From assembly GCA_000165345.1 (NCBI GenBank), contig CM000429.1:512001-576000 (forward strand): DNA of 64,000 bases, read 5' to 3'. Both the position numbers and the translations under genes were made by a program. Each line of letters opens with the position of its first letter. Within the stretch, counting starts at the first letter, position 1. Positions 1 through 48,314 of this stretch are shown here, in pieces. The notes under the pieces were generated by a model. That model had not been told where the DNA came from. It did no database searches and worked only from the letters and a program-made list of their open reading frames with translations.

Positions 1-235
1 GAGTCTTGAGATTCAATGCTTAAATTCCCTTCGCTTAATAGAAAATGGTTTGATTTCTATTGTTCACTTAATACTTTATCCTGTCAGATTTGGTTTCTTT
101 GGCTATATTTTTTTTAATAGCAACTGGAATACTTTTTTATTTGTGAATAAAGTTATAGAATTATTCATTTTTACTACAATTTTTGAATGTTTGAGAATTA
201 AATTATTAATTATTCCTGAACAAAAATCACTTATT

Positions 236-3200
236 ATGAACATTAGTGATTATTTTGATAGCTTGAAGACGCTATTACTATTAAGTAACCATAGAGAAGT
301 TTTCATAAATACACAAAAAATCATTGACTTTACAAAAGGATTATTAAGTTATATACTTGTAATATTTCAAAGTATTTGCACGATGTACCTTGTTTTTAAA
401 ATAGTGCATTTTTTCAATGAAAAGTCACATGAATTTGGCTTATCACAAATCTATATATTCAATTATTGGTTTGCAATCTATTTACTTTATTCAACAAGAT
501 ACATTAATTCATGTATCCATTTCATTATTAATTATCGTTATTTTGTTACTCTTTTTCAATTACCCAGTGATACTGGATTAAATTATAGCTTTATACCACA
601 AAAGATAAGTTATTTCGATAAAAATCATCAAGAATCCGATAAAAATCAAATTTCAGAGCCTTTAATTGATTTCAAAGATTCAGGTAATGAATTTAAAATA
701 AAAAATAATTACGATACTCTTAACAAAAAATATTCATTAATTTACAATATTCACGATAGTCTGGATAACAGATTCCAAAAAAATTATTCCATTTCAAAAA
801 AAGTTTCTGATACAATTAATGTTATATCCAATGGAACCAACATTGGTAATGATAATTATGATACCTTAGAAAATGATCATGAATTTAATTTTCAAATTTC
901 AAATAATTTGTTTAATTCAACAATTATTACTTATAAAAATTTATCAATCTCTGAGAATAAATTTAAAAAACAAATTCACAATTCAAGCAATAAATTTAAG
1001 TTTTTGTTTAATTTATTTGAAAAAAAAATGGGACAAACTAATTATTGTTTAAGCGATCATTGCAATAATCATATGGAAATTACTGACAAGGAATTAATGG
1101 AACATAGATTTTATCTAAATAATATAAATTTATCAATTAAAATGAATGAAGTAATTATTATATTTGGGTCTGATGATAAAAGTAAAGAATTATTAACGAA
1201 ATTTGTTTCTGGATTTCCTGGAATTCAGAGTAATGAACAACTCAAATCTCATTCGACAAATCTTCTCAATTACGATGTTTTTTTAATGAATAGAAAAATG
1301 CTTGAATTTGTCTCAAATTTTTTTGAATATCAAAATTCAGAATTTATAATAGACCCATTCGATTTCATATTATCTGGAAAACCATTTAACAAACATATTT
1401 TTGAGTTGATATATGACTCATTTTTATCTCAATATTTTACGAAGATTGAACCTTCGCATGTGAATTCTGAGACAATTAAAAATTATATTTATCCAAAAGT
1501 TGAAAGTATTCAACAATTTGTCGAGGCAAAAATATTTTTACAACTTTCTCAGTTCTTTTATAACATTTTGACTACGCTTGATAATTATTCATTCGCAATT
1601 GTGATTATTGATGGTATTTTTGAATTATTACTTCCAGAAACTTACATTAAACTAGTTGAAAAGATATTACCGAATAATTCAATATTTTCAGAGTTTAATA
1701 TTTCTTTTATTATTACAACGAATAGTGATTTATTCCCATATTTATCTTATTTATATCAAAATAATTCATATGTCAAGTTGGCAGTGATTAATACGGGAGG
1801 ACTATATTTTACCAAAGATAATTACTTGAAAGTGGAAATTAAAAACAAATTTGTTGAAAATTTGCCGTCAATAGATAATACAATAAATGAAATTTTTAAT
1901 ATTAAATTAAAGAATAACAATACTTACCCTTGTTCAACAAGTATTTCTTCTATCAGCAGATTATTCTTTAAAAGATTTGAAACTAGGAATTTTTATTCAA
2001 GCAAATATTTGATCTATGTTTTTTTTATTGCACTATTTTCATTTACTGTAAAATTGACGATATTTTCTTGCCAGCACCTGACGAAGAATCACAAAAATGT
2101 TAACAATATTTACGACTTTTTTGTATTTGAAACTCTATCTTTTTACCCTCTATACTCGCTAGTTATAACTTCAAGAAATTCTTATTCAAATGGTTTATCA
2201 AGCATACTAATAGGATACGGAGTAATTTCATCGCTTATGCTTAATAGTTATAATGCTTTTTTTTCAGAATCAAACTTCTTGAAAAATAACGAAGTCGTTT
2301 TCAATGAAGGAGAAGTTGATAATTTTGAGGAAATTCCGGAATTTTTGAGAGATATACCAGAAAAACATTACAGTTCCTCACATTTTATTCAATTTAACGG
2401 AAAACAAATATTAAGGACAGAATCATTGTTTTACAAGGATCATTTTCTTAGCTCAAAGACAATAAATATACCTGGAATCAAGCCTAAAGGATTTAATAGT
2501 GCTCTAATTTCGTCCAAGAAAATAAGAAATATCTTAATATGGAAATCAAAAAAAGAATCTAATATTAAATTGTTACAAAAATATGAACAATTTACCATGG
2601 AAAAAAATCATAAATTTAAATTTAACAAAAATACAATCTTGATATTAACAATATTCTTTTTTATAAATATTGTTTCAAAGGCATTAATAAATATATTAAT
2701 TTTTGGATTTTCGTTAATTAACATTAATTCAATGAGTTATTATAATTGTTTTCATGAATTTTTGAAAATTATTTTGTCTTCAGATGATCCTATTTCAGTT
2801 ATTAATGATATTGAGATAAGAAAAAATAGATATTGTTTATATCTTTTCAAAGAAATATATTGCAAAAGAAGTAAAGTTACAATCCATTATCTAACTTTAA
2901 TTCACTTTCTCAATTTATTACTCTTTTTTGGAATTTCAAACAACTTGCATTATACCGTTGGAATTAGAATATTAATGAACAAGAATCTGCTTATTATTAC
3001 AATATTGTTTCCAATTTTATATAATATTATTAATTTTTCAAACTTTAATATTAACAAAACCAAATATTCAAATCTTGGGTGCAATTCATTTGATTATTAT
3101 TATTACTTGAATAAAAGCAACTCATTACCGTGGTTCAAACGCCAAATATTTAAACTATTAAAACTTAAACAGGAAAACCTCAAAGAATTTTCTAGTTTTA

Positions 3201-4339
3201 AAGTGAATTTACTGTTAAATTCGTTCATTTTATCGATTGTAGTTTCATTTCTATACTTTTTATTCAATTATAAAAAGAATGAAAATAATCAACAGCTGAA
3301 AATTGATTTAATAACACTTCTACCAATAATATTTTTTTTAATTCAATCTATTCATTTTCATATTACTCAAAGATCAAAAACTAATACCTTTCATAAACTA
3401 AATCTTTATAGTTACATAAGATGGTTAAAAACATCACTGCAGAAAGCTTATTATTTTCCAATTTATATAAATAAATCAGCAAGTTCAACATCTCCAAAAA
3501 CTAATACTAGCTTTTCATCAAATAAAAGAAATAGTACTTTATATGAAGATGGATATGAACTTTCAACACCAATATCAGGAGATTCTCTGAAAGTTGACCC
3601 GATAATTTCTATTAGTTCGACAAAAGTTCATTTGAGCTCTAATATCGTATTAATTCTGATCAATCCTCTTTTATTTCTAGATAATTCTTTGACATTTGGA
3701 TATGGAAAATCGCCTATATTTCCAATTAAGCAATTAAAGACAGTAAAGATTAATAACTTTGATAGAATTGCAGTAATTTCTAACCATAATTTAATATCAT
3801 CATATTGGACAATTAATATGGTTTTAGATCCGAAAGGCATGTATACAAATGACAATAAAAGCCTTTTGCATACATTAAAATCATTAGACATTTTCCCTAA
3901 TGTACTCGACAATTTTGACCAGAATGTAATTTTGAACATGCCAATACGAGAATATTTAGAATTTTTTAATTCTCAAGTTGTTGATAGTGAATTGTCTGTC
4001 ACCGGTGATATCAAAATTACAAATTTTGAACGCGATATTAGATCACAAGATTTGAATAAATTAGAGCAACACTTAAGTAAAGCAGAAGAAAACTTACGTG
4101 ATACAATTTATATTAAAAAGTTATTGCTTTTTGGACATTTTGCACTTTATTCTATGTACTACAGAGAACTAATTTTACACTTAGATTATAATATGGATCT
4201 TAATGTTTGGATTTCACTTGTCAAACAATTTTTTGATAACGAGGAATCTTCAATTAATAATATAATAATTATTTCAACAGAAACAGATTTACCAAATATC
4301 ATTGAAACTGAAACTAGATTATATAATGAAGGGAAGTAA
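236..4339 (+). CDS. large low-complexity protein with a multi-pass hydrophobic central region (hypothetical)
   Basis: The 1429-codon ORF 50..4339 is open in the standard code. The frame stays open to the window edge, and the ORF-track start at 50 is a TTG. The first in-frame ATG is at 236 (MNISDYFDSL...). The protein is N/I/F/K-rich, with several 20-25 aa hydrophobic stretches (for example ILILTIFFFINIVSKALINILIFGF and LITLLPIIFFLIQSIHF). I recognise no catalytic domain. Confidence 0.5.
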   Translation: MNISDYFDSLKTLLLLSNHREVFINTQKIIDFTKGLLSYILVIFQSICTMYLVFKIVHFFNEKSHEFGLSQIYIFNYWFAIYLLYSTRYINSCIHFIINYRYFVTLFQLPSDTGLNYSFIPQKISYFDKNHQESDKNQISEPLIDFKDSGNEFKIKNNYDTLNKKYSLIYNIHDSLDNRFQKNYSISKKVSDTINVISNGTNIGNDNYDTLENDHEFNFQISNNLFNSTIITYKNLSISENKFKKQIHNSSNKFKFLFNLFEKKMGQTNYCLSDHCNNHMEITDKELMEHRFYLNNINLSIKMNEVIIIFGSDDKSKELLTKFVSGFPGIQSNEQLKSHSTNLLNYDVFLMNRKMLEFVSNFFEYQNSEFIIDPFDFILSGKPFNKHIFELIYDSFLSQYFTKIEPSHVNSETIKNYIYPKVESIQQFVEAKIFLQLSQFFYNILTTLDNYSFAIVIIDGIFELLLPETYIKLVEKILPNNSIFSEFNISFIITTNSDLFPYLSYLYQNNSYVKLAVINTGGLYFTKDNYLKVEIKNKFVENLPSIDNTINEIFNIKLKNNNTYPCSTSISSISRLFFKRFETRNFYSSKYLIYVFFIALFSFTVKLTIFSCQHLTKNHKNVNNIYDFFVFETLSFYPLYSLVITSRNSYSNGLSSILIGYGVISSLMLNSYNAFFSESNFLKNNEVVFNEGEVDNFEEIPEFLRDIPEKHYSSSHFIQFNGKQILRTESLFYKDHFLSSKTINIPGIKPKGFNSALISSKKIRNILIWKSKKESNIKLLQKYEQFTMEKNHKFKFNKNTILILTIFFFINIVSKALINILIFGFSLININSMSYYNCFHEFLKIILSSDDPISVINDIEIRKNRYCLYLFKEIYCKRSKVTIHYLTLIHFLNLLLFFGISNNLHYTVGIRILMNKNLLIITILFPILYNIINFSNFNINKTKYSNLGCNSFDYYYYLNKSNSLPWFKRQIFKLLKLKQENLKEFSSFKVNLLLNSFILSIVVSFLYFLFNYKKNENNQQLKIDLITLLPIIFFLIQSIHFHITQRSKTNTFHKLNLYSYIRWLKTSLQKAYYFPIYINKSASSTSPKTNTSFSSNKRNSTLYEDGYELSTPISGDSLKVDPIISISSTKVHLSSNIVLILINPLLFLDNSLTFGYGKSPIFPIKQLKTVKINNFDRIAVISNHNLISSYWTINMVLDPKGMYTNDNKSLLHTLKSLDIFPNVLDNFDQNVILNMPIREYLEFFNSQVVDSELSVTGDIKITNFERDIRSQDLNKLEQHLSKAEENLRDTIYIKKLLLFGHFALYSMYYRELILHLDYNMDLNVWISLVKQFFDNEESSINNIIIISTETDLPNIIETETRLYNEGK

Positions 4340-8005: not shown

Positions 8006-8848
8006 ATGAACATTGTGCAGAACATGAAAAAGAATTCAGCTGGAGTTACATTAAATAAATCTAAAAATTTTTCGAGTCACAAATATTCATTTCAAGGAAC
8101 TCAAAATCAGGTTGACAAAACAGCTGTTATTAAAGGTATTAATTCTCAAATTCAAGCTAAAACAAATGATCAAATTCCAAAAAAAAATGTTACAGAAAAT
8201 TCCAATCTTAATGATTCTGAGTTGAACACTATTTCTTGTTCTAATAATAATTCAGACAGTTCTAGCTCAGCTTTTAATAGTACATTTCATTTACCATATA
8301 ATTTCAAGGAAGTTCCAGAACCAAAAATAAGAAGCGAGCTAATGAAAAAAAAAATTTCGAAATTGGAATCTTATCTATCTCTCTGCGAGGATTTATATCT
8401 AGGAGGTATTTCAAAAACACAAACAGTTTCTGAAATATTTCAATCGTTGATAATTTCTCATAATATTGACCATGAAGAACAATTTAATGCATTCTTAAAA
8501 AGGCAGTCGATTAATAATGGCTTCACAAAGTCAAGTACAAAAGCGAACTCAAAAAACTCTAATTTGCAAGAACCGATTACAAACGCAGAGAATATTATAT
8601 CTCCTTTACAGCTACTAACACATCCATTTAGAAATAAAGAAGTAATTGACTTATGGGGCCCACATGAAGTAATCCTCTTTGAATGCGGTGTTTGTAAGTA
8701 TGGTAAGGAATTCGACAAAATTCAAAGAATAATTAAAACAAAGACTACAAAAGAAATAGTTGATTTTTATTATTGTATTTGGAAAAGAACGAGTAGATAT
8801 AAGGCTTGGAAAAGTAATAGACAACTTTCTGAATATATTTTTTCTTAA
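8006..8848 (+). CDS. SANT/Myb-like domain protein (MTA/CoREST-type co-repressor-like)
   Basis: ATG at 8006. The C-terminus reads WGPHEVILFECGVCKYGKEFDKIQRIIKTKTTKEIVDFYYCIWKRTSRY. This matches the SANT consensus W..EE..F..GL.KYGKDF..IQ..V.TKTV.QCVEFYY.WKK. The N-terminus is S/N-rich. Confidence 0.5.
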   Translation: MNIVQNMKKNSAGVTLNKSKNFSSHKYSFQGTQNQVDKTAVIKGINSQIQAKTNDQIPKKNVTENSNLNDSELNTISCSNNNSDSSSSAFNSTFHLPYNFKEVPEPKIRSELMKKKISKLESYLSLCEDLYLGGISKTQTVSEIFQSLIISHNIDHEEQFNAFLKRQSINNGFTKSSTKANSKNSNLQEPITNAENIISPLQLLTHPFRNKEVIDLWGPHEVILFECGVCKYGKEFDKIQRIIKTKTTKEIVDFYYCIWKRTSRYKAWKSNRQLSEYIFS

Positions 8849-9083: not shown

Positions 9084-10110
9084 ATGGAAGCATGCCTTTT
9101 TGATGTTCAATCGTTGGTAAAGACAATTCAAAGCCTGCAGTTAAGCAAGGCTAACAAAAAAAATGGCGAGGGACAATTTTTAACGTGCATGATTTCAGCG
9201 CAAGGGATCAAATTGAGCAATAGCACTTTGAGCAAAGACGTTTATTGCTGCTCTTGGCTGAGGAAAAATATTTTTAAAAAGTATCTATACGAGGCAAGCC
9301 AAACAAACTGTTCACGCTTCGAGATTTGTTTGGGTACAATTTTAAATTGCATTCAAGTTTTTGGTTTAGATGCAAAGATGGTTATTTTAACCTATGATCA
9401 TGTTAGCCTGCATTTGAGCATTACAGATGATGATGGCGCTGTCACTGATTGTAGCTTATGCACCTATAACATTTCTGAGGAAACTAATGAATTTTATTAT
9501 TCCAATTTTTTAGATTGCAAAAATGTTGCAATTTTTGATTTGGATTATGTGACAATGTTCCCAATCATATTAAGAGAGCTATTAAAAGATCTTTGCGATG
9601 TTGGGAGATCTGAGAGCAAGGTAAGTTAAATAATTGATTATAGTTTCTACTTAGAATAATTTTTATTAGATAAAGATAGAATTTCACCCTATTAACCAGG
9701 AGCAGACTTGCATTCTGTCTTTCTCATGTTCTGTAGAAGGCAAGGAGTGTATTTGGGAATTTTCAGATGATCATAGTGTTTTCACTGGCTGCAGAATTGT
9801 TCAGTCTCACTGTTATTTTTACTCTCTTAAATCATTATCTCAGCTTGAGAAGTCTTTGAATGTTTGTTCACTTCTGCGAATTGTTATTGGAAACAACGGA
9901 TTACTAAATTTACAGATGGCTATAAAAAATGATTCTCAAAATGTAGTTAAAGGAGGAACTTGCAACTCAAATATTGAAGGGCGTAGTCCAGAACACGATG
10001 ATAACAAATATCAGCAAATATTCAATACTGAATTCATTATTTTTCCTATAAACTATGTTCAAGAGGAAGATTATAACTATCAAATTAATAATAATGACTT
10101 TAAACTATAA
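9084..10110 (+). CDS. RAD1: checkpoint clamp subunit RAD1 (9-1-1 complex), 2 exons
   Basis: Exons are 9084..9620 and 9700..10110. The 79 bp intron runs GTAAGT...CCAG in phase 0 and links ORF-track frames 3 and 1. Exon 1 matches the RAD1 family: GQFLTCMISAQGIKLSNSTLSKDVYCCSWLRKNIF...RFEICLGTILNCIQVFG against human EHATCFATKNGIKVTVENAKCVQANAFIQAGIF...INLTVLLDCLSIFG. Exon 2 matches too: LRIVIGNNGLLNLQMAIKND against KVSIRTDNRGFLSLQYMIRNED. Confidence 0.6.
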
Positions 10111-11784
10111 ATTTGCATCGTTACAATTAACAACAGATATACACAAAATACTAATTTCTTCATTTATTCGAAATATTAATAAGTACAAATCATTAACAGA
10201 ATTTTTATTTTCATCAGTAAAATGAGGCTTATAGTTAATAGAAATAGGAGAACTCTCAACACCTTTTAAGTGGAATAAACTCCATAAATATGTTCCAGCT
10301 GCCACTTGACTTGCAACAAACCATATGAGTCTTTGCAATATTGTTGGCCTTAACAAGCCAATTATCTTAATAACCTCGCTTGGTGCTTCTTTAAATGGTA
10401 CACATTTCAATATGTTACATATTTTAGGAGCATCATCACAAACAATAGATTGACCAAATCTCAAATCCCAAAAATAAAATGGATTAATTAAATTTTGGTT
10501 ATCGGAAAATAGATTTTGATGGATTAATATATCGAAATACTCAATTATTTGTTCAAAAATTTGTGTATTTGAAATTTTTGCGTTTACAGAGGTCAAAATT
10601 AACGATGCTAAAGCATTCAAGTCAATAAATACTAGCAAATCTGATAAATAGTCTTTGTTCGAGGGATCACTTTCGGTAATAACACTTAAACCTTTACCAC
10701 TGCATCCTTTTTCATCAATTAACTTATTGTTAATTCGTTCTGAAATAAACTTAACATTTATCGGTGTGATTTTTACATTTGGGGAGCCATTTATACACAG
10801 AATAGTTTTGAGATTTTTTAAAAGTCTTACTTCAGTTTCAATATTCAACAGCTTATCATTTTCAAAGTAGCACAGAAAGTCTGTTTTTGTAAAAAGTAAG
10901 GAGCCGAATTGCTGTTGTAATGAAAAATAAAATTGGTTGTTTCCTGATCCTTTGGTGTTATATGACAAGTTCTTTAATGATGGCTGAAAAGGCGGATTTT
11001 TAGATTCTTGTATCGCGTTACAGTAACATAAATATTTGGGAATTTTATCTCCACTATTACAACAAACACATACATATACATCACTTATTTTACTATTATT
11101 TGGAAAAATGATATCTTTGCAATTATTAAGTAATGGGTTAAAGAAAAATGGATCAACTTCAGCGTGGGCATTTAGGATATCAATTGAGCTGAGGCATTCA
11201 TAATTAAAGTTAATTCCTTGGAAATTACCTGAAATCTTATTCTCTGATTTATCATTCCAATATGACTTTTCACTTAGTTCAATTTTATGAAATGAAAAAT
11301 GATTTGTTTTTTTCATATGTGGGGGTTGTTTCATAAACTTATCAACATTTAGTACATTTTTAAATAGTGTATTTGGCGTTCTAATGATTGCCATCAACTT
11401 TGATTTTTCTTCATTCGATTCTTTAGTTTGCTTATTAATTATAGATAACGCACAACTGGATTCAATTGGCAAGTTAGGAAATGAAATGAATACTCCATTA
11501 TTATTTACAATTGAATTTTGAATAAATGGGATTGATAAAATGCTGTTGGGAAAAATATTCTCAAATAGATAAAATTTTGGTCCAATAATTTGTTGCAATA
11601 GCGGTTCTTCTATATTCACATTTTCACAGTTTGGTTTAATCCAGGTAAATTGGTCGACAAATGGGTGCCTTATTATTGAATTTGTAATTTCTTGGTCGAA
11701 TATGCTGTACCATAGCTCATTTGGAGCACTTTTAATAATAGTTTTTATTCTTCCTTTAGAGTGAGATTTGTTTAATTGATTCAT
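10105..11784 (-). CDS. hypothetical protein (559 aa), no recognised domain
   Basis: ATG start (cat on + strand at 11782-84). It is a long uninterrupted ORF. Its TAG stop (10105-07, - strand) directly abuts the RAD1 TAA stop (10108-10), giving tail-to-tail genes with 0 bp spacing. Composition matches the neighbouring genes. Confidence 0.5.
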   Translation of the reverse strand: MNQLNKSHSKGRIKTIIKSAPNELWYSIFDQEITNSIIRHPFVDQFTWIKPNCENVNIEEPLLQQIIGPKFYLFENIFPNSILSIPFIQNSIVNNNGVFISFPNLPIESSCALSIINKQTKESNEEKSKLMAIIRTPNTLFKNVLNVDKFMKQPPHMKKTNHFSFHKIELSEKSYWNDKSENKISGNFQGINFNYECLSSIDILNAHAEVDPFFFNPLLNNCKDIIFPNNSKISDVYVCVCCNSGDKIPKYLCYCNAIQESKNPPFQPSLKNLSYNTKGSGNNQFYFSLQQQFGSLLFTKTDFLCYFENDKLLNIETEVRLLKNLKTILCINGSPNVKITPINVKFISERINNKLIDEKGCSGKGLSVITESDPSNKDYLSDLLVFIDLNALASLILTSVNAKISNTQIFEQIIEYFDILIHQNLFSDNQNLINPFYFWDLRFGQSIVCDDAPKICNILKCVPFKEAPSEVIKIIGLLRPTILQRLIWFVASQVAAGTYLWSLFHLKGVESSPISINYKPHFTDENKNSVNDLYLLIFRINEEISILCISVVNCNDANL

Positions 11785-13160: not shown

Positions 13161-14132
13161 CTAATTGATTGACAATATTGATTCAAATAACTTTATCATT
13201 GCTTCATAAATTAGGAACATTATTCCACTGTGCATGCTAACTTTAGGAATATGAGTCATTAGTCCTGGGAAATAATGGTCCCTTGCAAAGTTGACAAACT
13301 CTTTATGGCTTAATTTTAATATATTGATATCGTAGGTTTTTAGTTGGATATTTTCTATCTTAGCCATTTGCATCCTGGATCTAATAACCTGTAGTGGGTA
13401 TGTCAATGCCGATGCTAATAACTTCGAAATGAATCCAAAGATGAAGAAGCGTAGATTACTCAGATAAAGATGTTTTGAATTATAATTAATTGATTGATTT
13501 CGAAATATGTCATATATTACAAGTTGTATCAATGTATGCGGAATCAACATTAAAGTTGGAATGAACCCAGAATATAAACCACATATTCCATTTTTTTGGT
13601 AAATACTATACATGCATTCAGCAATGCCATGTAACCCAGCAGAATATTGCTTCCAGCCCTTTTTCTTTGTATTTACTGATTGAATTTCTAACCTGGATTT
13701 AACTAACCAAAGTGGATGAACGAGAGCAGTCGAAAGCACACTTGCAATGATTGTTGAAATTGAATTTGAGAACGGAGAAATTTGTAAAGGATAAAAGCAT
13801 GTTTGGCTTTTAACAACGTAGCTGAACACAAAACACTTATTTTCTTCTATAAAATAACGGATAAAATCAAAAAAGTACCTAAAAATAAACCATGAGACTC
13901 CAGATGCAACTAACTGGCCGTTTAATCCCTTATATAATCCAATAACTCCTTCAGTATCTATTATAAAGTTGATTGTGGATATCAATGTCGGGTGTGCGAT
14001 CACTGCACCATCGGATGCTGCTGCCACTTGCTGTCTAGTCCTTACTACATCTAGTGGATGAAGTAAAAAAGAAGTTATTATTGCAGATATAAGCGATGAA
14101 GTTGCTGTTAAAAAGAATTTAATTTTCTTCAT
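13161..14132 (-). CDS. mitochondrial carrier family (SLC25) protein
   Basis: Three tandem repeats carry the P-x-[DE]-x-x-[KR] signature: HPLDVVRTRQQV, HPLWLVKSRLEI and YPLQVIRSRMQM. Six hydrophobic helices. ATG start. Confidence 0.8.
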   Translation of the reverse strand: MKKIKFFLTATSSLISAIITSFLLHPLDVVRTRQQVAAASDGAVIAHPTLISTINFIIDTEGVIGLYKGLNGQLVASGVSWFIFRYFFDFIRYFIEENKCFVFSYVVKSQTCFYPLQISPFSNSISTIIASVLSTALVHPLWLVKSRLEIQSVNTKKKGWKQYSAGLHGIAECMYSIYQKNGICGLYSGFIPTLMLIPHTLIQLVIYDIFRNQSINYNSKHLYLSNLRFFIFGFISKLLASALTYPLQVIRSRMQMAKIENIQLKTYDINILKLSHKEFVNFARDHYFPGLMTHIPKVSMHSGIMFLIYEAMIKLFESILSIN

Positions 14133-16903: not shown

Positions 16904-17563
16904 ATGAAAACAATTACTGTTGCGATTGTATTATCTTTGGTTTGGATATATGTACACTTTTGTTCAAGCTTCGAAAACAGGATAGAAGATATTGCATTAC
17001 TCAAGCTTAGAGGTTCTGTAGAAATGGGAGATCAACTAAAAGGTGGTCCTCACTATACAGGGATGATGGTAGGAGGTAGGCATGTTGGGATTGAACATTC
17101 TTTGGATCTTGGCGATTTATCGCAAGTATATCGCTGCTTGTTTTATTCTACTCACCCAGGATCATGCAATCCTTCAGGGACGGTAATAAATCCTTGCCAT
17201 TTTTGTAGAACTGAAGTGGTTTATGCTGTCGCTTCCGCAAAATGCCCTGGAGACGAGTCATTCCCCCCAAGTTTGGCTCCTTTATATATGTGGGTCTTGA
17301 AACCATATCATATTAGAAAAAGATTAGGGCATCAATATCTTTGCGCTGTAGAGCCGAATCCTGCAGCTAAATATGCATCTCGCCCTTCAAATGAATCACC
17401 GCTTTCATCAGATGAAAACTCATATCCGCTACCTCCAGAAATCCCATTTTCTCCATCGAATAATCAAAATGAATCCTTAAGTGAAAGTACATTGATGATT
17501 ATCATTGGGTCAGGCGTTTTGCTCACGCTATTACTTTGCGGTGTAGGGTTGTACATGGTTTAA
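16904..17563 (+). CDS. secreted or surface cysteine-rich protein, probable GPI or C-terminal anchor; paralog A
   Basis: N-terminal signal peptide MKTITVAIVLSLVWIYVHFCSS. The C-terminal hydrophobic tail LMIIIGSGVLLTLLLCGVGLYMV sits at the extreme C-terminus, as a GPI signal or TM anchor would. The central 6-Cys module (YRCLFYSTHPGSCNP...PCHFCRTEVVYAVASAKCPGDESFPPSLAPLYMWV...QYLCAV) is shared with the gene at 18055. Confidence 0.5.
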   Translation: MKTITVAIVLSLVWIYVHFCSSFENRIEDIALLKLRGSVEMGDQLKGGPHYTGMMVGGRHVGIEHSLDLGDLSQVYRCLFYSTHPGSCNPSGTVINPCHFCRTEVVYAVASAKCPGDESFPPSLAPLYMWVLKPYHIRKRLGHQYLCAVEPNPAAKYASRPSNESPLSSDENSYPLPPEIPFSPSNNQNESLSESTLMIIIGSGVLLTLLLCGVGLYMV

Positions 17564-18054
17564 TTAAATTATTATAAAAAATAAAGTCTTATATTAATAA
17601 TGTATCTATATCTATCTATCAGTTCTAAAGATAAGTAGTTGAATTTATTAAAAAAAATGTGTGGCTTGCAGCATTAAAAAGTTACACAGTTAAATAAATC
17701 ACGTGGCAATAAAAAGCCTTGTACCCTAAAATGTAATTATGGGAAGATACAACTAAGGGTCCAATTTGAATGAAGAGGTATCAATATATTTCCAAAGTAA
17801 TGAACAGGACTTTTGTCACAAAAATCTAAATAAAAGCAATATTCCCTCTCTTCTCTCCAAATTATAAATAAAGGGCGGGCAATATAAAACGTTACCTAAA
17901 TGAAAGGTTAGGTTGATTTTTTTTATTATAGAAAAAACGAATATAAGAATTTAGATCAGAAATTTTTAAAGACTTTTTGAATTATATTTATCTTAGTTAA
18001 TTGGGATCAATCTAAATCCCCTGTAATTAAAAATCAAAAAAAAACGCGTCAAAG

Positions 18055-19050
18055 ATGAAATACTACTTGCCTTTCGGAGTATTACTCTTAATTATACAAC
18101 TTTATCTTTCAAGGTGTTCTGAATCTTCGGAAGATACGGAAAGCGAAGTTCTTTCGATTCAAGATTCGTCTGAATTGAGGGATTGCAAACAAGCCATAAG
18201 TGGTATATCAGGAGCTGGTTATCATGAATTTACATTGGACCCTTCACTATTGAAGGTAATTTCGGAAATGGGTAATTCAGGCCAACCGTGCCGATTTATT
18301 GTAGTTGATGGCATGCAGCAGAACTATCAGCAGGCTGATGATGGTGGTTCATCAAGCCAAGTAAATTATTTAAGCCAACAAGTTCAGACTCCAATGCAAA
18401 TGACAATGCAAACGCAAATGCCAGTTCAAATGCCAATGCAAATGCCAATGCAAATGCCAACACAAATGCAAATACAAAGAACTAATCAGGGATTGCAGTT
18501 CGGACACGGTAATATGGTACAATGGGTAGGTGGACCAGTCAACTTTGACAACATGGTTGACTGTAAGTTCTACCGTCAAAATCCGGGATTTTGTGTACCT
18601 ATGTCTATCTATACTCCTTGTTCACGTTGTAAGGCGCGTGTGAGAACAATTTTTAGAACTAGTTACAAGGTTAGATGTCCTGGCCAGGAATCTTTCCCAG
18701 CACAATTGAGGCCTTACTTTGCTTGGGTGCCTACTAGTCATCGTAACCCAAAGAGAGAGAGAGGAATATTTTCCAGATGGAGACGCCAGTTTATGTGCAT
18801 TGTAATGGCAATTTCCGATATTCCAAAGGATGTTTCTTTGTTTTGGCAGCATTCTCAGATAACTTTCGATTCTGCATATGAAACACCACAATATGTTCCT
18901 TTACTTCTTGGTCCATATGGAGATCAGTCTACTGCACTGGGATATGCTGCTGGCACAAACTTCCTTACTTCTAGCGGCTTAAGTTATCAAGGCGCACGTC
19001 ATTATATTCAAAATCAAAATTCAGAACGAAATGCCCACGAAGCTTCCTAA
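18055..19050 (+). CDS. secreted cysteine-rich protein with MQ/MP tandem repeat; paralog B
   Basis: Signal peptide MKYYLPFGVLLLIIQLYLSRCSES. Same 6-Cys module as the gene at 16904 (DCKFYRQNPGFCVP...PCSRCKARVRTIFRTSYKVRCPGQESFPAQLRPYFAWV...QFMCIV). An internal (Q-M-P-M)n repeat. No C-terminal anchor. Confidence 0.5.
   Translation: MKYYLPFGVLLLIIQLYLSRCSESSEDTESEVLSIQDSSELRDCKQAISGISGAGYHEFTLDPSLLKVISEMGNSGQPCRFIVVDGMQQNYQQADDGGSSSQVNYLSQQVQTPMQMTMQTQMPVQMPMQMPMQMPTQMQIQRTNQGLQFGHGNMVQWVGGPVNFDNMVDCKFYRQNPGFCVPMSIYTPCSRCKARVRTIFRTSYKVRCPGQESFPAQLRPYFAWVPTSHRNPKRERGIFSRWRRQFMCIVMAISDIPKDVSLFWQHSQITFDSAYETPQYVPLLLGPYGDQSTALGYAAGTNFLTSSGLSYQGARHYIQNQNSERNAHEAS
18391..18480 (+). repeat. 12-bp coding tandem repeat (atgccaatgcaa)n encoding (MPMQ)n
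   Basis: Direct read: ccaatgcaaatgacaatgcaaacgcaaatgccagttcaaatgccaatgcaaatgccaatgcaaatgccaacacaaatgcaaatacaa. Confidence 0.8.
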
Positions 19051-40647: not shown

Positions 40648-43600
40648 ATGGAAGGTGGGGTAATAAACTTGAAAAAAGAAAGAAGCTCAGTTAGAACATT
40701 CATCAGATTCTGTCCATCTAAAAAAACAATTATCGAAGATTCAAAAGAATGTCAATGGGTATTCAGCACAGGAGATCATGGAAAGTCGATTAGAGCAAGT
40801 AGAAAATCATCTATTTCCAAAACTAGAAGTTGTACTGTCACTGATGAGATATTTAAAGAAGATGCTTGCAATAGCGAAATTTATAGAAAAACTATGTTAC
40901 AGCAGCATGCTGTTGATGTATTAGATGGAATCTCTACGAATATAATAGTTTGCGGCCCTCACAAAACGGGAAAAACCAATTTATTAATTGGTTCTCAAAG
41001 AAGTATTGGGATAGTGCTTCAATCAATATATGATATTTTTGCTGCAATACGATGTTACACAAATGGTATTCATATTAATGAAAAAGGGGTAAATACTGAA
41101 ACAACTGGCAACTTTGATCGACTTTTTGTTGTCAAAGCATCTGTATTAGAAATAGGAGAAGACTCTTCAAACTTTAAATTAGATAATGTTCGTGATTTAA
41201 TAAATCCAGAAAACCCACTACAATTGATTAAAAAATTGGGAGGAGAATTAGGTTATTCTATAAAAGGTGAACATGAACATCTATTTGAGAATGAGGAAAA
41301 ACTAGTGGCATCAATTTTATCTGCTGTAGCAAGAAAAAAAGTTTTAGATGCGATTCGTAGAGAAAGAGTTAATACCAGAAAGAAAAAAAAAACTCCTGAG
41401 CAAATACAAAATACAATATTTGGTGAATTTGGAGAAAGATGGGTTAAAGATGATATGATTGGTAGTTTGTTGATAACTATTTCAGTTGAGTCAGTTGATA
41501 AGTCAGAATTGGAAAATAATATAAGTAAGAATGAAAAAATAGCAAACTCAACCCATGTAAACTATGGTACCTTGCGATTTTTTGAAATTTCATCTTGTAT
41601 TAGCGCAAGCCCAAATTTAAAAGCAGTAATTCCGCTTTTCGGTTTGCTCGATTTAGCATTCGAGATAAGGAAATATTGTTATACAAATGAAAAAAGTAAT
41701 AGAATCAATATTACGAATATTAGTAGTTATATTGCTTCAACCATAATTGATTCAAATTTAACTATAATTGGCACGTTATCTAGGTTTCCTTCAGAGAAAA
41801 AGTGTTGCATTCGCCCTTTAATAGCACCTTACGATAATCAAACAACTGTTCAACCCCATTCAATTTTTGATACATTGCAATTTTTGGAATATATCGGTAA
41901 TAGCATGAAATTTCCCATATATCCTCAAAGAAATTGTTTTAAAAAGCCTTTTGTTCAATCAAAACTAATGGAAGTTTGCAGGAAAAATTTAATGAATGGC
42001 TCCAAGAAAATTCATAGTAAAATGATAATTAAATCAGAAAGAGGAATCTGGCAAAGTGAAAGTAGTGGAAGAGTAACTAGAATTATCCGGCTGCTTACAT
42101 TCATTAATCGTTCAATTGAAGGTTCAGGAATATTGAGAATTTTGATGAGTGGGAATGAAGATGATATTATTCGAATTTACTGCGAAAATATTATTGGATC
42201 TGGTGTAATTGACCTAGATGGATACCAAATTAATAATTCCACTGGAAAATGGTTTCAAATTGATAACTATAAATTACCTGAAAAAGAAAAAGAACAGAGG
42301 AAGAAGTTAGAGTACATGAATCAAATAGAACAGAAATACGGATTGAAAGACAAAAATATTAAAAAGGAAACTTTGCTCATTGATAAAAAGGTCAAATTCG
42401 ACTGTGAAAAAAAAAATGAAAAAGAAATTGAAGATCATATTAAAAAGATGAAAAATCTTGACTTTACAATTGAAAGACCTAAATTTGAAGATAATAACTT
42501 TAAAGAGATTTCAGAAAACAAAGCTCCTAATAAATTTGGAAATAACATTAAATTTGACGAAGTTTTGCTTTCATCAAGTACAAACGAAAGAATTGAAAGT
42601 AGTGAGTCTGATGTAGATATTACTAATATATTCGATTCTACAGCACTTGAGCGTAATAAAGATAAGTTAGATAATGAAGATTTTAATGTAAATCTGTGCG
42701 AACAATTTGATAAGTCAAATAAATCAAAGAAAAAAATATTTATTAGCGAAAACGTAGGCAACAGTAACAATTATTTGAATGTTGACGAATACGTTGGCGA
42801 ATCAAATAATTTTAATGATCAAATAAGTGAAGGAATAGGTCCTGATTCAAACCTATTTGATCCTGTAAAACAATATGAAAAGTTACTAAAAAAAACTATT
42901 TCGCTTAATAAACTACAAAAATCGATTATGGAAAGCCAAAAAAAGGTACTTCAAGATGAATCTTTATATGCAAATAGTAATGCTAATAGCATGAATGATT
43001 ATATTTCTAAGCTAGAAGGGAAGAAACCTTCTAACCGTCTTTCATTAGTTAATAAAAAAGCTATTGAGGCTAGCCAAAAAGCTATTGAAGCTAGTAAAAA
43101 AGCTATTGAAGCTAGTAAACATTTATATGAGAGGGAAGTAAACCACTCGAGAGGAAAAATACATGATCACATACCTGCTTCGAAAAATTTTCCACAAATC
43201 GATATTTATGCACCATCCTATGACTCGGATATTGAATATGACAAATTTCACAACCCAAAAGATATCGTATTTGATTTCAAGTCATCAAACGAAAGCGATG
43301 AAGATCATAAGGAAAGAGTTCTTGAAAGTCATTATAAAAGCAACTTCCCTCATAATAATGAAAGTTGCCCTTGCTGTGACCAACTATCAAAAAGGAGTAA
43401 GTGCCGTTGCCATTATGCGGACGCATCCGTAAATTTCAATGGAATAAGCGAAACATCTGTGAATACTGATAAATCTCTGTTCTTATATTATGAACCAGGA
43501 GCAGGTAAAAATGAACTAATTAAACCAAATGGCAGAAGTTGGGATATTTTTGTTAATGTTCCCAAGAAGTTTGCGAACGTAACAACTCTTGGATTCGAAA

Positions 43601-44544
43601 ATGGGAAAATATTTCAAAGTGATAAACAAGAGTTTGAGAATCCTTTTGAGAACGATGAAAATATTGAAGTCCCAGATTCGAAAATAATAAGTTCATATGA
43701 AGCTTTTTCCGACAAAGATATTTCAAATATTACATCAGAGTTTGATCAAAATTCTTTTCAAACTAAAATAAATCTTGATTCGTTACAAAGAGAAGCTATA
43801 GAAAACAATAAATTAAGTAAAAAAAAGGTGAATTATGAGAGTAACTCAAACGTGGAAAATAAAAATCAAACAATTAAAAATGATATTTTGGACGACCTTA
43901 TGGAGATTAAAAGACAAACTTCAAATCTTAAACATCAGTTCATATTGGATCCCAAATTGTTTAGGCCTCTCTATGAAAGTAACAACCCAGATAAATGTGA
44001 TCTATCAATAAAGAAAATTGATATTGATCAAGAACTAAAAAATGTTGAGAAATATTCCTGTTTTGAGCATAGCTCAAATATAGATAGACTATCTTCGTCC
44101 GCCAATAGCAATGATTTAAACTTTAATTCAAACTTCAATTATTCAGATTATCCCAATTTCAATTTAGAAAATTCATCTCAGGAAAATTCTTTTGAAGGCG
44201 TAACTCCATACAACTCCAAGATTAATCAGCCTTATATTAATAGTTCTTCAAATAACTACTCTGATGACAAATACTTGGAAGAAATAGAAATGGACCTTAA
44301 CGAACAATTGAATAATTTCTCTAAGTATACGAATACAAATTTGTCAAATACACGCCCAAGCGAAAGTAATACAGACAGAAGTATTGAAATTCTCAAACAC
44401 CAGGAAATTCCAATAGAAAACGTTATTCGAGAAGTTGGATGCTGCCATATTAAGTATATTATGCCATTTCCAAAAGATCTAAAACCAAAGATATTTAAAG
44501 GAACTAGCAACTTTCAGTTTCCCTATTTAAGGTCATTATATTAA
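40648..44544 (+). CDS. kinesin-like protein with a degenerate motor domain, plus a long low-complexity/coiled-coil tail
   Basis: The N-terminal ~330 aa follow the kinesin motor layout. VRTFIRFCP corresponds to IRVxCRxRP. FKEDACNSEIYRKTMLQQHAVDVLDGISTNIIVCGPHKTGKTNLLIG corresponds to F..D..Q.EVY......V..VL.GYN.TIFAYGQTGSGKTYTMxG. GIVLQSIYDIF corresponds to GIIPRA...LF. FVVKASVLEIGEDS corresponds to F.V.VSYLEIYNE. LFGLLDLAFEIRK corresponds to L.LVDLAGSER. The P-loop keeps GKT (GPHKTGKT), but switch II reads DLAFE and so lacks the DxxG glycine. The tail contains a 3x KAIEAS[QK] repeat and N/S-rich tracts. Confidence 0.55.
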   Translation: MEGGVINLKKERSSVRTFIRFCPSKKTIIEDSKECQWVFSTGDHGKSIRASRKSSISKTRSCTVTDEIFKEDACNSEIYRKTMLQQHAVDVLDGISTNIIVCGPHKTGKTNLLIGSQRSIGIVLQSIYDIFAAIRCYTNGIHINEKGVNTETTGNFDRLFVVKASVLEIGEDSSNFKLDNVRDLINPENPLQLIKKLGGELGYSIKGEHEHLFENEEKLVASILSAVARKKVLDAIRRERVNTRKKKKTPEQIQNTIFGEFGERWVKDDMIGSLLITISVESVDKSELENNISKNEKIANSTHVNYGTLRFFEISSCISASPNLKAVIPLFGLLDLAFEIRKYCYTNEKSNRINITNISSYIASTIIDSNLTIIGTLSRFPSEKKCCIRPLIAPYDNQTTVQPHSIFDTLQFLEYIGNSMKFPIYPQRNCFKKPFVQSKLMEVCRKNLMNGSKKIHSKMIIKSERGIWQSESSGRVTRIIRLLTFINRSIEGSGILRILMSGNEDDIIRIYCENIIGSGVIDLDGYQINNSTGKWFQIDNYKLPEKEKEQRKKLEYMNQIEQKYGLKDKNIKKETLLIDKKVKFDCEKKNEKEIEDHIKKMKNLDFTIERPKFEDNNFKEISENKAPNKFGNNIKFDEVLLSSSTNERIESSESDVDITNIFDSTALERNKDKLDNEDFNVNLCEQFDKSNKSKKKIFISENVGNSNNYLNVDEYVGESNNFNDQISEGIGPDSNLFDPVKQYEKLLKKTISLNKLQKSIMESQKKVLQDESLYANSNANSMNDYISKLEGKKPSNRLSLVNKKAIEASQKAIEASKKAIEASKHLYEREVNHSRGKIHDHIPASKNFPQIDIYAPSYDSDIEYDKFHNPKDIVFDFKSSNESDEDHKERVLESHYKSNFPHNNESCPCCDQLSKRSKCRCHYADASVNFNGISETSVNTDKSLFLYYEPGAGKNELIKPNGRSWDIFVNVPKKFANVTTLGFENGKIFQSDKQEFENPFENDENIEVPDSKIISSYEAFSDKDISNITSEFDQNSFQTKINLDSLQREAIENNKLSKKKVNYESNSNVENKNQTIKNDILDDLMEIKRQTSNLKHQFILDPKLFRPLYESNNPDKCDLSIKKIDIDQELKNVEKYSCFEHSSNIDRLSSSANSNDLNFNSNFNYSDYPNFNLENSSQENSFEGVTPYNSKINQPYINSSSNNYSDDKYLEEIEMDLNEQLNNFSKYTNTNLSNTRPSESNTDRSIEILKHQEIPIENVIREVGCCHIKYIMPFPKDLKPKIFKGTSNFQFPYLRSLY
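43057..43119 (+). repeat. 3 x 21-bp in-frame tandem repeat (aaagctattgaRgctagYMaa) encoding KAIEAS[QK]
   Basis: Units at 43057-77, 43078-98 and 43099-119. Units 2 and 3 are identical; unit 1 differs at 3 positions. Confidence 0.85.
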
Positions 44545-44747: not shown

Positions 44748-47700
44748 ATGCACTCTGTGTGTAGCAACAATGATGACGATAAAAGCGACATATTTTCTGG
44801 TTCAGATTCACATAAATTTGTACCACTGAATCCCAATTTCGCAAAAGAGATCAATGCCTCAATCCCAATGGGAGTATATGGTGGAATTCAAAAAAATGAA
44901 GAACCTTACTTAAACTCCATGAAAAATTCAAGCCTAATGGTTATGGAATTGATTCCTACTCAACAAATTGTCAAGTGCGAGACTCATACTTTACAAAATC
45001 AAGATTTAAATTTTGCTCAGTTAAATAGGGAAGACCTCGTACACAAAGGCAGTTATGATTCATATTCATTTGAAACTATAAAAAATCATTACTTTGATTG
45101 TAGGTATTTACCTAATGAATACACTGATGATAATCTGTTTTTGAAGGATTCTTTTTCTACAAAAAAACAAGGGGAAATTACAATCAAGCAACTAATTAAA
45201 CAAGCATCTGGAATAATCACTGAAGAAGTTGCGAACAACTGTAGAGCAACAGGCATTGGATTAAAACAGGCTGTTTCTGGCGAAATTACTCAAGTGATGA
45301 TTTATACATACTCTGAAAATAACCAGAGAATAACTTATGGCGGATATAATTTCAGGATTTTATTAACGCCTTACAAACTGGACAGTCTAAATAGCCAAGA
45401 TCAAGTTCCATTCATTTCTTTGGAGTTGCTTGATATGAATGAAGTATTTGAGGGAAGTGTAATAGATAATCACGATGGTACCTATACAGCATCTTACATT
45501 TGTAAAAAAGCAGTTCCTCACAAATTAGAAATTGTAGAAAGTAAGAATAAGATTAAAATAGGAGAATCTCCATTTGTGATTCAAGTCACCCCTGGAAAAT
45601 CATATCCGGAATTGTGTTGGGCTGAAGGCGAAGGATTGAAATATTATAATATAGATGAGACAATATCTACTTTCAAAATATATTCTGTAGATAGAATGGG
45701 GAATAAAACGAAAAGAGGAGGCGATAAATATGAGGTATTTGGCGTTGGGGGAATTAAAATTCAACAAATATTAGATTTGAAAAATGGAGAATATGAAGTA
45801 TATTACAAAGTACATAAATGTAACTTAGATGATTATAAGGAAATTAATATTAAATTATTTGGGCAATTTATCAAAACTCCTGCATTTTATCCAGTATCTA
45901 AAGTCTTATTAGATGAAAAAACAATAAATACAAATTATGAGATTGATCAAAATAACTTGTTAAATAAAACTATTTTGAAGTTCGATAATTTGTCCATTGA
46001 TATTAAACCAGCTTACACACTTTCAATGGTATTCAAACACTTTAATGAGATGAAGAAGATGGGGAATGAGATTGACATTTCGATACCCAACTTGGCCCCA
46101 TTTCCAGAAGAAAAAGAAAGCAAAACCAATAGAGAAATAATTAAGAGGCTTGGAATTTTAAATAGTTCAAATAACTTCGAAGTAAATGATGACATGATTT
46201 TAAATGATAAAATTAGAGCTAGTATATTGGATGATTATAAAAATAATATTTTGAAAAATATCACAAATAAGCTGATTAAGAATGAGGAGATTTTGAATGA
46301 TCTGTCTAAAGCTATTATTCTGCATTGCGAAACAGGTAAAAAGCATGATAGAAAACTTGCTAAAGATGAAAAAAAACTAGAGTCTGAATTGGATGAAATA
46401 ACAGATTGCCAACAGAGAATGTTTGCGACGTATTCTTGTTTACAACAAGGTGGTATTGATAGTTTGCCAGTTTCATTTGAATTGGAAGACCCTGGAAAAG
46501 TGAAGTCCCGTCAGACTAAAGATAGAAAATTCTACATAGATACATATAATTTACTAGAAAAGAAGTTTGAAGAAATTAATTTAAGAAAGGAATTATTTGA
46601 GAAAAAAAGGGATGAATACACACAGAAATTACATCGAACGTTGGCAACAAGACAGAAGTCTATAATAAAAACTCAAAGGAGCTATAACAGAATATTGGAT
46701 GAGTTGGACAAAGTTTATTCGCAATTATCAAAAAAACAAACTAGAAGACAAGATTTATACAAAAATTTGAAATCAGATTCACTTAAAGTATATGAAGGAC
46801 TAGAGAATCAAAAAGTATTGGATTTCCATTTAAAGAAAAATACAGTAATAACAATGAATAGTGAAAGACACGAAGTTGATAAGCTTGCAAACCATGATGA
46901 CAATAATAATAATAATAAAAGGATTACCGGGAGGGATAGAAAATATAACAATTACTCTTGCTTAGTCCCCACAGATCCTGAAAGCCCTGCGTTTTGGTTT
47001 GCAGAAGCATCATATCTTAGAGATGAAAAGGAAAAAATCAATCAGTACAAAAAACATGATGATGATTTTAATATAAATAATCTATTAAGTGATAATCCAC
47101 AAAAAATTAAAAGGTGGGATTTAGATGAGGACAGTAGATGGATAAGCTGTCCTTCAAGCGTTTCAATAACATTTTCAACAATGAAAACACCGGAAATACA
47201 ACCTATAAAGCAAAAAGGAATGTTCAAAAATGATATTTATACTGAAAACTTTAATAAAATTAAAAATGAAATTTTATCAGGCGAGAAAAAAGATCCTATG
47301 CTACCTGAAAATATGAATGATGAAGAAATTAATGTTATTATTCAAAAAGATAAGGAAAGAAAGAAGCTATTCAGTAAAATGATAAATACTAAAAAAAGTA
47401 ACGCTTTGGATGATAATTCCAGTCAATGGGTTAATGAACCACCAAGTCCAAGAAAAATTAAATCATTTTATAATAAATATTTGGATTATTACAACGAAAA
47501 ATTATTTAATGTAATTAAAGAAGAATCTAATAATGAAGAATTGAAATATGAAACAGATATAGGCCATGATTACATAGATATTAATTTATTAAATAAAGAT
47601 GTTAAATTAATACCCAAATTATTTTGGGATAAAGATTTTATACTTAAATTAAATGCTGGAGCAACACAGAAAGAAGATTTTGACAAGATAAAGAATGTTT

Positions 47701-48314
47701 GGGAAGATCAGCTAAAAGCAGGCCGTGAAATGAAGAAAAGTATCGAAGCAGAAAAATTAAAGCTGATGAAGTTACTTCCAAAAGATGATTTTAATATTAA
47801 TCATTTAGATGTTATGGAATACCATGACGAAAATAACCTGGTTAACAATATTAAAGATAGTAATATAGTGAAAACTGACTGGAGGCAAATTAATCATACA
47901 TTTAAAAGCGATCCTAGGGATGTTCCATGGGAATTTTTGGATGAGATTTCTAAATTGGACACTATGCCAAGCCAAGAGTTGAATAAGGAAGATTTACAAA
48001 AATATATTGTAGAATCACTGGTATTGAATGGTAAAGGTTTATCTAATATAAAAAATCAAATTAAGGAGAGCTTAATTCAAGAAGAAAAAAGTATTAGGGA
48101 GGCACAAAGTAATAAAATGCCCAACAAAGAATTGGAAAATATTAATAATGAGCAAAAACAAAAATTGGAAGCAAGTAAAAGTAACATTAAAATGTTTGAT
48201 AAATCGAAGAAACTCAAGGCAAATACATTGAATCGTGAAAAAACAAAATTGCTAATAAGTAGAAAAAATTTTGATACGAGGAGAGAGCAGTTCGAGCATG
48301 ACAACATTAAATAA
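44748..48314 (+). CDS. filamin-repeat (IG-FLMN) domain protein with a long charged coiled-coil C-terminal region
   Basis: Residues ~150-380 contain at least two filamin-type repeats: GIGLKQAVSGEITQVMIYTYSENNQRITYGG...DNHDGTYTASYICKKAVPHKLEIVESKNKIKIGESPFVIQVTPG, then ...GEGLKYYNIDETISTFKIYSVDRMGNKTKRGGDKYEVFGVGG...NGEYEVYYKV. The match is to the filamin consensus DNGDGTY.V.Y.P.E.G.H.V.V.....HI.GSPF.V.V. The remainder is K/E/N-rich. Confidence 0.6.
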   Translation: MHSVCSNNDDDKSDIFSGSDSHKFVPLNPNFAKEINASIPMGVYGGIQKNEEPYLNSMKNSSLMVMELIPTQQIVKCETHTLQNQDLNFAQLNREDLVHKGSYDSYSFETIKNHYFDCRYLPNEYTDDNLFLKDSFSTKKQGEITIKQLIKQASGIITEEVANNCRATGIGLKQAVSGEITQVMIYTYSENNQRITYGGYNFRILLTPYKLDSLNSQDQVPFISLELLDMNEVFEGSVIDNHDGTYTASYICKKAVPHKLEIVESKNKIKIGESPFVIQVTPGKSYPELCWAEGEGLKYYNIDETISTFKIYSVDRMGNKTKRGGDKYEVFGVGGIKIQQILDLKNGEYEVYYKVHKCNLDDYKEINIKLFGQFIKTPAFYPVSKVLLDEKTINTNYEIDQNNLLNKTILKFDNLSIDIKPAYTLSMVFKHFNEMKKMGNEIDISIPNLAPFPEEKESKTNREIIKRLGILNSSNNFEVNDDMILNDKIRASILDDYKNNILKNITNKLIKNEEILNDLSKAIILHCETGKKHDRKLAKDEKKLESELDEITDCQQRMFATYSCLQQGGIDSLPVSFELEDPGKVKSRQTKDRKFYIDTYNLLEKKFEEINLRKELFEKKRDEYTQKLHRTLATRQKSIIKTQRSYNRILDELDKVYSQLSKKQTRRQDLYKNLKSDSLKVYEGLENQKVLDFHLKKNTVITMNSERHEVDKLANHDDNNNNNKRITGRDRKYNNYSCLVPTDPESPAFWFAEASYLRDEKEKINQYKKHDDDFNINNLLSDNPQKIKRWDLDEDSRWISCPSSVSITFSTMKTPEIQPIKQKGMFKNDIYTENFNKIKNEILSGEKKDPMLPENMNDEEINVIIQKDKERKKLFSKMINTKKSNALDDNSSQWVNEPPSPRKIKSFYNKYLDYYNEKLFNVIKEESNNEELKYETDIGHDYIDINLLNKDVKLIPKLFWDKDFILKLNAGATQKEDFDKIKNVWEDQLKAGREMKKSIEAEKLKLMKLLPKDDFNINHLDVMEYHDENNLVNNIKDSNIVKTDWRQINHTFKSDPRDVPWEFLDEISKLDTMPSQELNKEDLQKYIVESLVLNGKGLSNIKNQIKESLIQEEKSIREAQSNKMPNKELENINNEQKQKLEASKSNIKMFDKSKKLKANTLNREKTKLLISRKNFDTRREQFEHDNIK

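Follow-up and report, generated by a model that had tools for sequence, protein, structure and literature searches.

A previously unclassified six-cysteine domain in two tandem genes for predicted secreted proteins of Cryptosporidium parvum

The locus

Two adjacent genes on the plus strand of Cryptosporidium parvum chromosome 1, cgd1_2390 (gene A) and cgd1_2400 (gene B), encode proteins that share a module with six cysteines. They lie in the window, the 64,000-nucleotide stretch analysed here (assembly GCA_000165345.1, contig CM000429.1, positions 512,001 to 576,000), which is AT-rich with about 30% GC and supplies the coordinates used below. The module is a predicted β-rich extracellular domain of a previously unclassified and unstudied family restricted to the Apicomplexa. 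A first-pass annotation, made from the letters of the sequence, had placed the two open reading frames (ORFs) at 16904..17563 and 18055..19050. Both are present exactly there, on the same strand and 491 bp apart, and each begins at the first ATG of its own open frame. Comparison of the two upstream regions by reading gave no obvious common motif.

Exact protein look-up identified protein A as EAK88377.1 / CPATCC_000170. Protein B (EAK88376.1 / CPATCC_000169) is a 100% match to the C. parvum Iowa II 'signal peptide, secreted protein'. The gene numbers follow from counting ORFs between neighbours with published identifiers, namely a Myb/SANT gene (8006-8848, cgd1_2330), a mitochondrial carrier (13161-14132, cgd1_2370) and POFUT2 (461 aa, 26076-27461, cgd1_2440). 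The ordered gene list in the supplement of Tandel et al. 2019 (PMC6877471) agrees with this assignment, and cgd1_2400 is entered there as 'Uncharacterized secreted protein'. The features of the two genes are:

16904..17563, plus strand: gene A, 219 aa, predicted membrane-anchored member of apparently ancestral type
16904..16969, plus strand: A, predicted signal peptide, about aa 1-22, MKTITVAIVLSLVWIYVHFCSS
17042..17122, plus strand: A, conserved pre-module segment, aa 47-73, GGPHYTGMMVGGRHVGIEHSLDLGDLSQV
17123..17362, plus strand: A, six-cysteine module, aa 74-153, with Cys78, 88, 98, 101, 114 and 147
17363..17491, plus strand: A, Ser/Pro/Asn-rich linker, aa 154-196, with two N-x-S sequons
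17492..17560, plus strand: A, C-terminal hydrophobic tail, aa 197-219, to the last residue
18055..19050, plus strand: gene B, 331 aa, predicted soluble secreted paralogue
18055..18123, plus strand: B, predicted signal peptide, about aa 1-23
18124..18504, plus strand: B, acidic/Gln-rich, fast-evolving N-terminal half, including the Q-M-P repeat
18393..18478, plus strand: B, imperfect hexanucleotide repeat coding for (Q-M/T/V-P/Q-M)n
18550..18816, plus strand: B, six-cysteine module, aa 166-254, with Cys170, 180, 189, 192, 208 and 248
18817..18927, plus strand: B, C-terminal extension SDIPxDxSxFWQHSQ ... VPLLLGPY

With one strand and so short a gap, the ORFs might be exons of a single gene, or one of them a decaying duplicate. 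This is hardly credible, because a start, a predicted signal peptide and a stop are present in both, the two are annotated separately and are full-length in about 10 species, no in-frame continuation joins them, and their mRNA levels differ about 60-fold (from values in PMC6877471).

Layout of the two proteins

Both proteins begin with the hydrophobic, signal-like N-termini that the first-pass annotation had read as signal peptides, and these are kept in the orthologs. The signal-peptide and glycosylphosphatidylinositol (GPI) features described here are based on sequence inspection, hydropathy and depositors' annotations rather than on a dedicated predictor. In protein A the best 15-residue Kyte-Doolittle window scores 2.35 from residue 3, and the hydrophobic h-region is followed by small residues at a C-S-S junction where cleavage may occur. 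The N-terminus is hydrophobic in all A orthologs, though its sequence varies. The corresponding value for B is 2.08 at residue 5.

The segment of A that precedes the module has invariant columns from G48 to Q74 and low pLDDT in the AlphaFold2 (AF2) model. Alignment of the upstream regions makes it partly recognisable in coccidian relatives (G-x-I-x-GG...GDLS...). The module itself is delimited by the hidden Markov model (HMM) envelope, the invariant cysteines and the AF2 core. The linker behind it is kept among intestinal species and divergent in C. serpentis.

Protein B has a different plan outside the module. The repeat reported by the first-pass annotation as QMPM-type is real (Tandem Repeats Finder: period 6, 14.3 copies), and indels among the orthologs show that its length differs between species. 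The module of B, set by the HMM envelope, carries a net charge of +15 by count. The extension that follows is conserved in the genus (invariant columns S254-Q291) and missing from A. Its AF2 model has a helix at 112-119 (model numbering) and low confidence after it. The C-terminus of B is hydrophilic by hydropathy and has no anchor.

The six-cysteine module

The modules of A and B, about 80 aa long, are homologous: BLASTP aligns them at 33% identity over 82 aa (E=5e-12), and hhalign of the two ortholog-set profiles gives 97.4% probability (E=1e-11). BLASTP finds no A-B similarity beyond the module, as had been claimed. The signature C-x9-C-x8/9-C-x2-C-x12-17-C-x28-40-C has its six cysteines invariant in 25/25 aligned members, A and B also match the extended form C-x9-C-x8/9-C-x2-C-x12-17-C-P-x3-S-...-W-x13-24-C, and the family HMM scores them almost equally (119.7 and 120.0 bits). 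The six cysteines presumably form three intradomain disulfides, given the predicted secretory routing and the invariance of an even cysteine number. A zinc-binding role for the CxxC pair is less likely in a protein with a signal peptide.

The AF2 models of both proteins (mean pLDDT 74.5 for A, core 75-92; 72.8 for B, core 85-94) have a common topology: a short helix after Cys1, a strand after CxxC and a long β-hairpin ending at Cys6. In protein B the hairpin tip is extended by an insertion and a further helix is present. The hairpin, taken from the conserved Trp to Cys6, is Lys/Arg-rich and net positive (+2 to +7) in 25/25 sequences, and the whole module of B-type members reaches +13 to +16.

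The module had gone unrecognised in the first-pass annotation, and profile searches bear this out in Pfam and the Protein Data Bank (PDB), where no known, widely distributed domain matches it. Neither A nor B, nor any of the 25 module fragments or 10 full-length relatives, attains the curated gathering score of a Pfam family, and the sub-threshold matches at E<=1 are unrelated (e.g. Cauli_VI against B, E=0.11). CPW-WPC, COWP, PAN/Apple, EGF, TSP1, Kazal and the other Pfam cysteine-rich apicomplexan domains give no profile match either. The Plasmodium 6-Cys (s48/45) domain fits neither by profile nor by its β-sandwich fold. A sequence profile search of the PDB returned noise (best IL-1RAcP, E=0.36), and comparison of the module with PDB folds gave no structural match. 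The searchable literature has no main-text mention of cgd1_2390 or cgd1_2400, of the cpbgf or CPATCC identifiers, or of the ortholog locus tags. Domain databases lack an entry for the domain, and no structure related to it has been solved; the catalogue of extracellular modules in the Apicomplexa therefore gains a missing member.

Conservation within Cryptosporidium

A and B have one-to-one orthologs in every Cryptosporidium genome sampled, intestinal and gastric, and are separately annotated in about 10 species. In C. ubiquitum (cubi_00234/235), C. ryanae (FG386_002914/915) and C. serpentis (ACR3K2_00620/630) the two genes carry neighbouring locus tags. Adjacent one-to-one orthologs in both lineages mean that the tandem duplication is older than the radiation of the genus and predates the split between gastric and intestinal species. 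A profile search counts two copies per Cryptosporidium genome, and scanning all six frames of the window with the HMM revealed no third.

Residues 47-160 of A are almost invariant from C. parvum to C. serpentis. Residues ~156-291 of B are likewise conserved, while its N-terminal half is barely alignable between species. The A proteins of C. parvum and C. hominis differ at 5/219 positions, none in the module; the B proteins have 26 differences, one in the module and 20/26 at residues 28-135. Either diversifying selection or relaxed constraint could explain the divergence of B residues 24-150 (18124-18504).

These figures bear on the suggestion of the first-pass annotation that the genes are rapidly diverging host-interface or cell-surface factors, and on the wider view of them as a lineage-specific, rapidly diversifying family of host-interface effectors or variant surface antigens. 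Tandem genes with signal peptides invite that view, and so do the variable N-terminal half of B and its length-variable repeat. Rapid divergence holds for that half of B; it fails for the module, which in both proteins is one of the best conserved parts. The description of a rapidly diverging, protist-specific family was only partly right: exactly two copies exist, they are kept in tandem, and the module is nearly invariant within the genus. The further step, that tandem and rapidly diverging genes of this kind are typical host-interface factors, is not supported by a conserved module in two copies of an old duplication.

Other secreted families of Cryptosporidium, such as MEDLE, SKSR and FGLN, are subtelomeric or expanded. 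A and B do not belong with multi-copy, species-variable families at chromosome ends: they are two copies with one-to-one orthologs, gastric species included, at a chromosome-internal position between cgd1_2380 and cgd1_2410. The genes around them are housekeeping genes (Rad1, PP1, RAD50-like, Sua5, POFUT2, ELP3, PTPA and SRP68) and not a subtelomeric array. With homologues in distant apicomplexans besides, variant effectors or antigens are a very unlikely identity for the pair.

The family beyond Cryptosporidium

The module profile was searched against 1.84 billion representative proteins with a threshold of E<=1e-3, and 22 proteins were retrieved. They include gregarine members from Porospora cf. 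gigantea A and B (three paralogues), Gregarina sp. and Blabericola migrator, the Sarcocystidae members BN1204_018680 of Neospora caninum and BESB_014700 of Besnoitia besnoiti, and a member from Cardiosporidium cionae. One comes from a EukProt transcriptome and the rest from Sequence Read Archive (SRA) assemblies and a metagenome. The lineage-restricted reading therefore falls. No match among the 1.84 billion representatives is named as Plasmodium, Babesia, Theileria or chromerid. A word-indexed homology search using the family profile yielded only 10 proteins, and two gregarines were the only taxa that it added.

The usual layout of the family is a signal peptide, the module and a C-terminal hydrophobic anchor. 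All scanned non-B members from Cryptosporidium to Neospora, except one (P0050), end in a hydrophobic tail that extends to the very C-terminus; B keeps the signal peptide but has no anchor. The module of A is 36-45% identical to outgroup members and that of B 28-34%. Being closer to the outgroups and having their anchor, A appears from these comparisons to be the ancestral-type form, and B a derived, soluble paralogue specific to the genus. B would have been born by tandem duplication before the Cryptosporidium radiation, losing the anchor and gaining the variable acidic/Q-rich N-terminal half while the charge of its module turned strongly positive.

In Porospora cf. gigantea two family members adjoin convergently (contig L006, 9862-10452 plus and 10579-11019 minus; likewise on L007), and both are hydrophobic-tailed. 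Pairing of paralogues is thus not unique to Cryptosporidium, and the Porospora pair may be ancient or may reflect an independent duplication. Adaptin_N fragments occur in the gene upstream of a family member on two contigs (L001 3006-3155 and L002 4433-4690), one from a metagenome of 25% GC and one from an SRA assembly of 43% GC. This neighbourhood may be conserved synteny on those contigs; the C. parvum pair has no flanking adaptin gene.

The hydrophobic tail of protein A

The anchor-like tail that had been noticed in A, and its absence from B, are both confirmed. The final 23 residues of A, LMIIIGSGVLLTLLLCGVGLYMV, close the protein with no cytoplasmic residues beyond them and a Kyte-Doolittle value of 2.67. 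The small residues S-L-S-E-S precede the tail, and the spacer is short. Judged from its sequence, this overall layout would be that of a GPI signal, and the tail is either a signal for GPI attachment or a transmembrane (TM) anchor without a cytoplasmic tail. The depositors of A orthologs conflict on this point, one annotating 'signal peptide plus GPI signal' and others 'integral membrane' or 'transmembrane'. An LLCGxGxY motif in the tail is invariant across Cryptosporidium. It resembles the ...LGIGSY... (G-x-G-x-Y) in the tail of a Porospora paralogue (P0043/P0056).

Expression

Stage expression was checked in published RNA-seq data from the supplements of Tandel et al. 2019 (PMC6877471), where sporozoites and cultures at 24 h and 48 h occupy nine columns whose order was inferred from the sample table. 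Both transcripts are highest in sporozoites and both appear in the sheet of sporozoite-expressed genes. On that column order, A stands at about 7.3 / 4.0 / 4.1 log2 counts per million (CPM) in sporozoites, 24 h and 48 h cultures, and B at about 13.5 / 7.8 / 7.9, the sporozoite value of B corresponding to roughly 1% of sporozoite mRNA. In sorted cells B averages 10.98 in asexual parasites, 9.21 in females in vitro and 10.24 in females in vivo, with a logFC of -1.77 for female versus asexual, and it is a top-500 gene in all three populations (PMC6877471). Neither gene occurs in the female-conserved gene tables searched in the same supplement. The transcript pattern is zoite-type, not female or wall-forming, and production mainly for the invasive zoite stages is its best explanation.

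The RNA labelled 'sporozoite' is that of parasites freshly excysted from oocysts (PMC6877471), so the transcripts could be leftovers of sporulation. The proteins might then build or line the oocyst or sporocyst, or tether sporozoites inside it, instead of serving invasion. The phyletic pattern fits such a component (Cryptosporidium, gregarines, coccidia and Cardiosporidium, with no named Plasmodium, Babesia or Theileria protein), and the proteins are cysteine-rich and predicted to be secreted, as COWPs are generally known to be. Wall proteins are female-specific, whereas B is lower in females than in asexual parasites and abundant in the latter. The female-conserved tables lack both genes, and Pfam finds no COWP-type repeats in the two proteins. 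On balance an oocyst component is improbable.

A possible role in attachment or invasion

The reading we favour, with slightly more doubt than belief, takes A and B to the zoite surface or into a secretory organelle and has the basic hairpin bind an anionic partner as the zoite attaches or invades. Both proteins would enter the secretory pathway towards the zoite surface or a secretory organelle. Protein A would stay on the membrane, and B would be released or held non-covalently, possibly by A. The Lys/Arg-rich β-hairpin between Trp and Cys6 would then contact an anionic ligand (a glycosaminoglycan, a mucin or a membrane). The exposed-looking N-terminal half of B, which diverges fast while the module does not, counts in favour of such a role.

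Several points pull the other way. The conservation of A is unusually high for an immune-exposed adhesin, and an internal, structural or receptor-type role fits it equally well. Overall confidence in the AF2 models is only moderate (pLDDT 73-75), and the basic character of a hairpin argues weakly for polyanion binding. The order of the sporozoite, 24 h and 48 h columns was taken from the sample table and not from the sheet header. An invariant tail motif is unexpected in a GPI signal peptide that is discarded, so that LLCGxGxY and the Porospora G-x-G-x-Y suggest a retained TM helix rather than a cleaved GPI signal.

The pair might instead work in the lumen of the secretory pathway or of an organelle with no host contact, for example as a membrane-tethered scaffold or sorting partner for apical organelles. 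The nearly invariant core of A and its tail motif suit this, as does a copy number stable at two per genome, and the spread of the family across Apicomplexa speaks for a role in cell biology rather than one tied to particular hosts. Sequence inspection, however, finds no retention motif at the C-terminus of A or B, the N-terminal half of B evolves fast as in exposed proteins, and a transcript as abundant in sporozoites as that of B is more cargo-like than machinery-like. An internal factor is accordingly an unlikely alternative.

Attachment or invasion, if correct, could be extended to the whole family, which is quite doubtful. The module would then be a new fold dating from early Apicomplexa and would form a two-component adhesin in which an anchored A-type protein holds a soluble basic B-type protein (or the adjacent copy in gregarines). 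With this adhesin the zoites of gut lineages (gregarines, Cryptosporidium and coccidia) would attach to anionic epithelial glycoconjugates; blood-cell lineages would have lost it.

Comparison with known systems

The Plasmodium 6-Cys (s48/45) proteins include the pair of GPI-anchored P12 and soluble P41, and the tandem genes for Pfs48/45 and Pfs47. Like the module of A and B, theirs is an apicomplexan-restricted, six-cysteine domain; it is disulfide-rich and found on zoite or gamete surfaces, much as is presumed for A and B. Anchored members are mixed with soluble paralogues that they hold, and some of the genes are in tandem. By analogy, A may hold B in place as P12 does P41.

Cryptosporidium gp40/15 (GP60, cgd6_1080) is a sporozoite and merozoite glycoprotein with a Ser-rich, length-variable region, of which gp15 is GPI-anchored and the soluble gp40 stays associated. 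The combination of an anchored and a soluble part recalls A and B. In contrast to these two genes with an invariant core and relatives beyond the genus, gp40/15 comes from one cleaved precursor that lacks a cysteine module, is highly polymorphic along its whole length and occurs in Cryptosporidium only.

COWP/OWP and CPW-WPC proteins are cysteine-rich secreted proteins of Apicomplexa with fixed cysteine spacing, and the distribution of COWPs (Cryptosporidium, coccidia and gregarines) resembles that of the present family. A and B differ from them in lacking a Pfam match, in having a single module rather than arrays, in their non-female-specific expression and, for A, in the membrane anchor. The small GPI-anchored domains of the Ly6/uPAR type have 8-10 cysteines and end in CN. 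Their compact disulfide domain of ~70-90 aa, short linker, GPI-type C-terminal signal and secreted, anchor-less paralogues recall the layout predicted for A and B. The six cysteines of A and B follow another pattern, the PDB holds no structural match, and the two groups are not linked by evolution.

No vaccine exists against Cryptosporidium, few of its invasion ligands have been validated, and most of its known surface antigens (GP60, mucins) are polymorphic. Across the genus, C. hominis, C. parvum and C. meleagridis included, the core of A and B shows essentially no variation, and B is among the most abundant sporozoite transcripts. Were the proteins adhesins, the invariant module of B would be a conserved pan-Cryptosporidium invasion ligand and a target for vaccines or antibodies. 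Should they prove internal or wall components, the finding would shrink to another conserved hypothetical family. The genes cgd1_2390 and cgd1_2400 are a concrete, genetically tractable target, and the family links Cryptosporidium with gregarines and coccidia.

Other genes in the window

The RAD50-like gene downstream of B (19942-22831, plus strand; AAA_23 at 5.8e-31, SMC_N) is cgd1_2410, listed as 'Uncharacterized protein'. A canonical short intron at about 22006-22046 (AG|GTAAGT ... TTTATAG|) splits its ORF. The second ORF terminates at ...DMKGRI*, directly after which we take the RAD50 signature motif to be expected. As the stop falls just before that motif, at least one further intron or exon probably lies downstream.

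ORFs of 1429 aa (50-4339, plus strand), 1298 aa (40648-44544, plus strand) and 559 aa (10105-11784, minus strand) have no Pfam match at the thresholds used. One filamin repeat is present in the 1188-aa ORF at 44748-48314. The GC content is 23-26% at the window ends (1-4000 and 60000-64000) against about 30-35% in mid-window.

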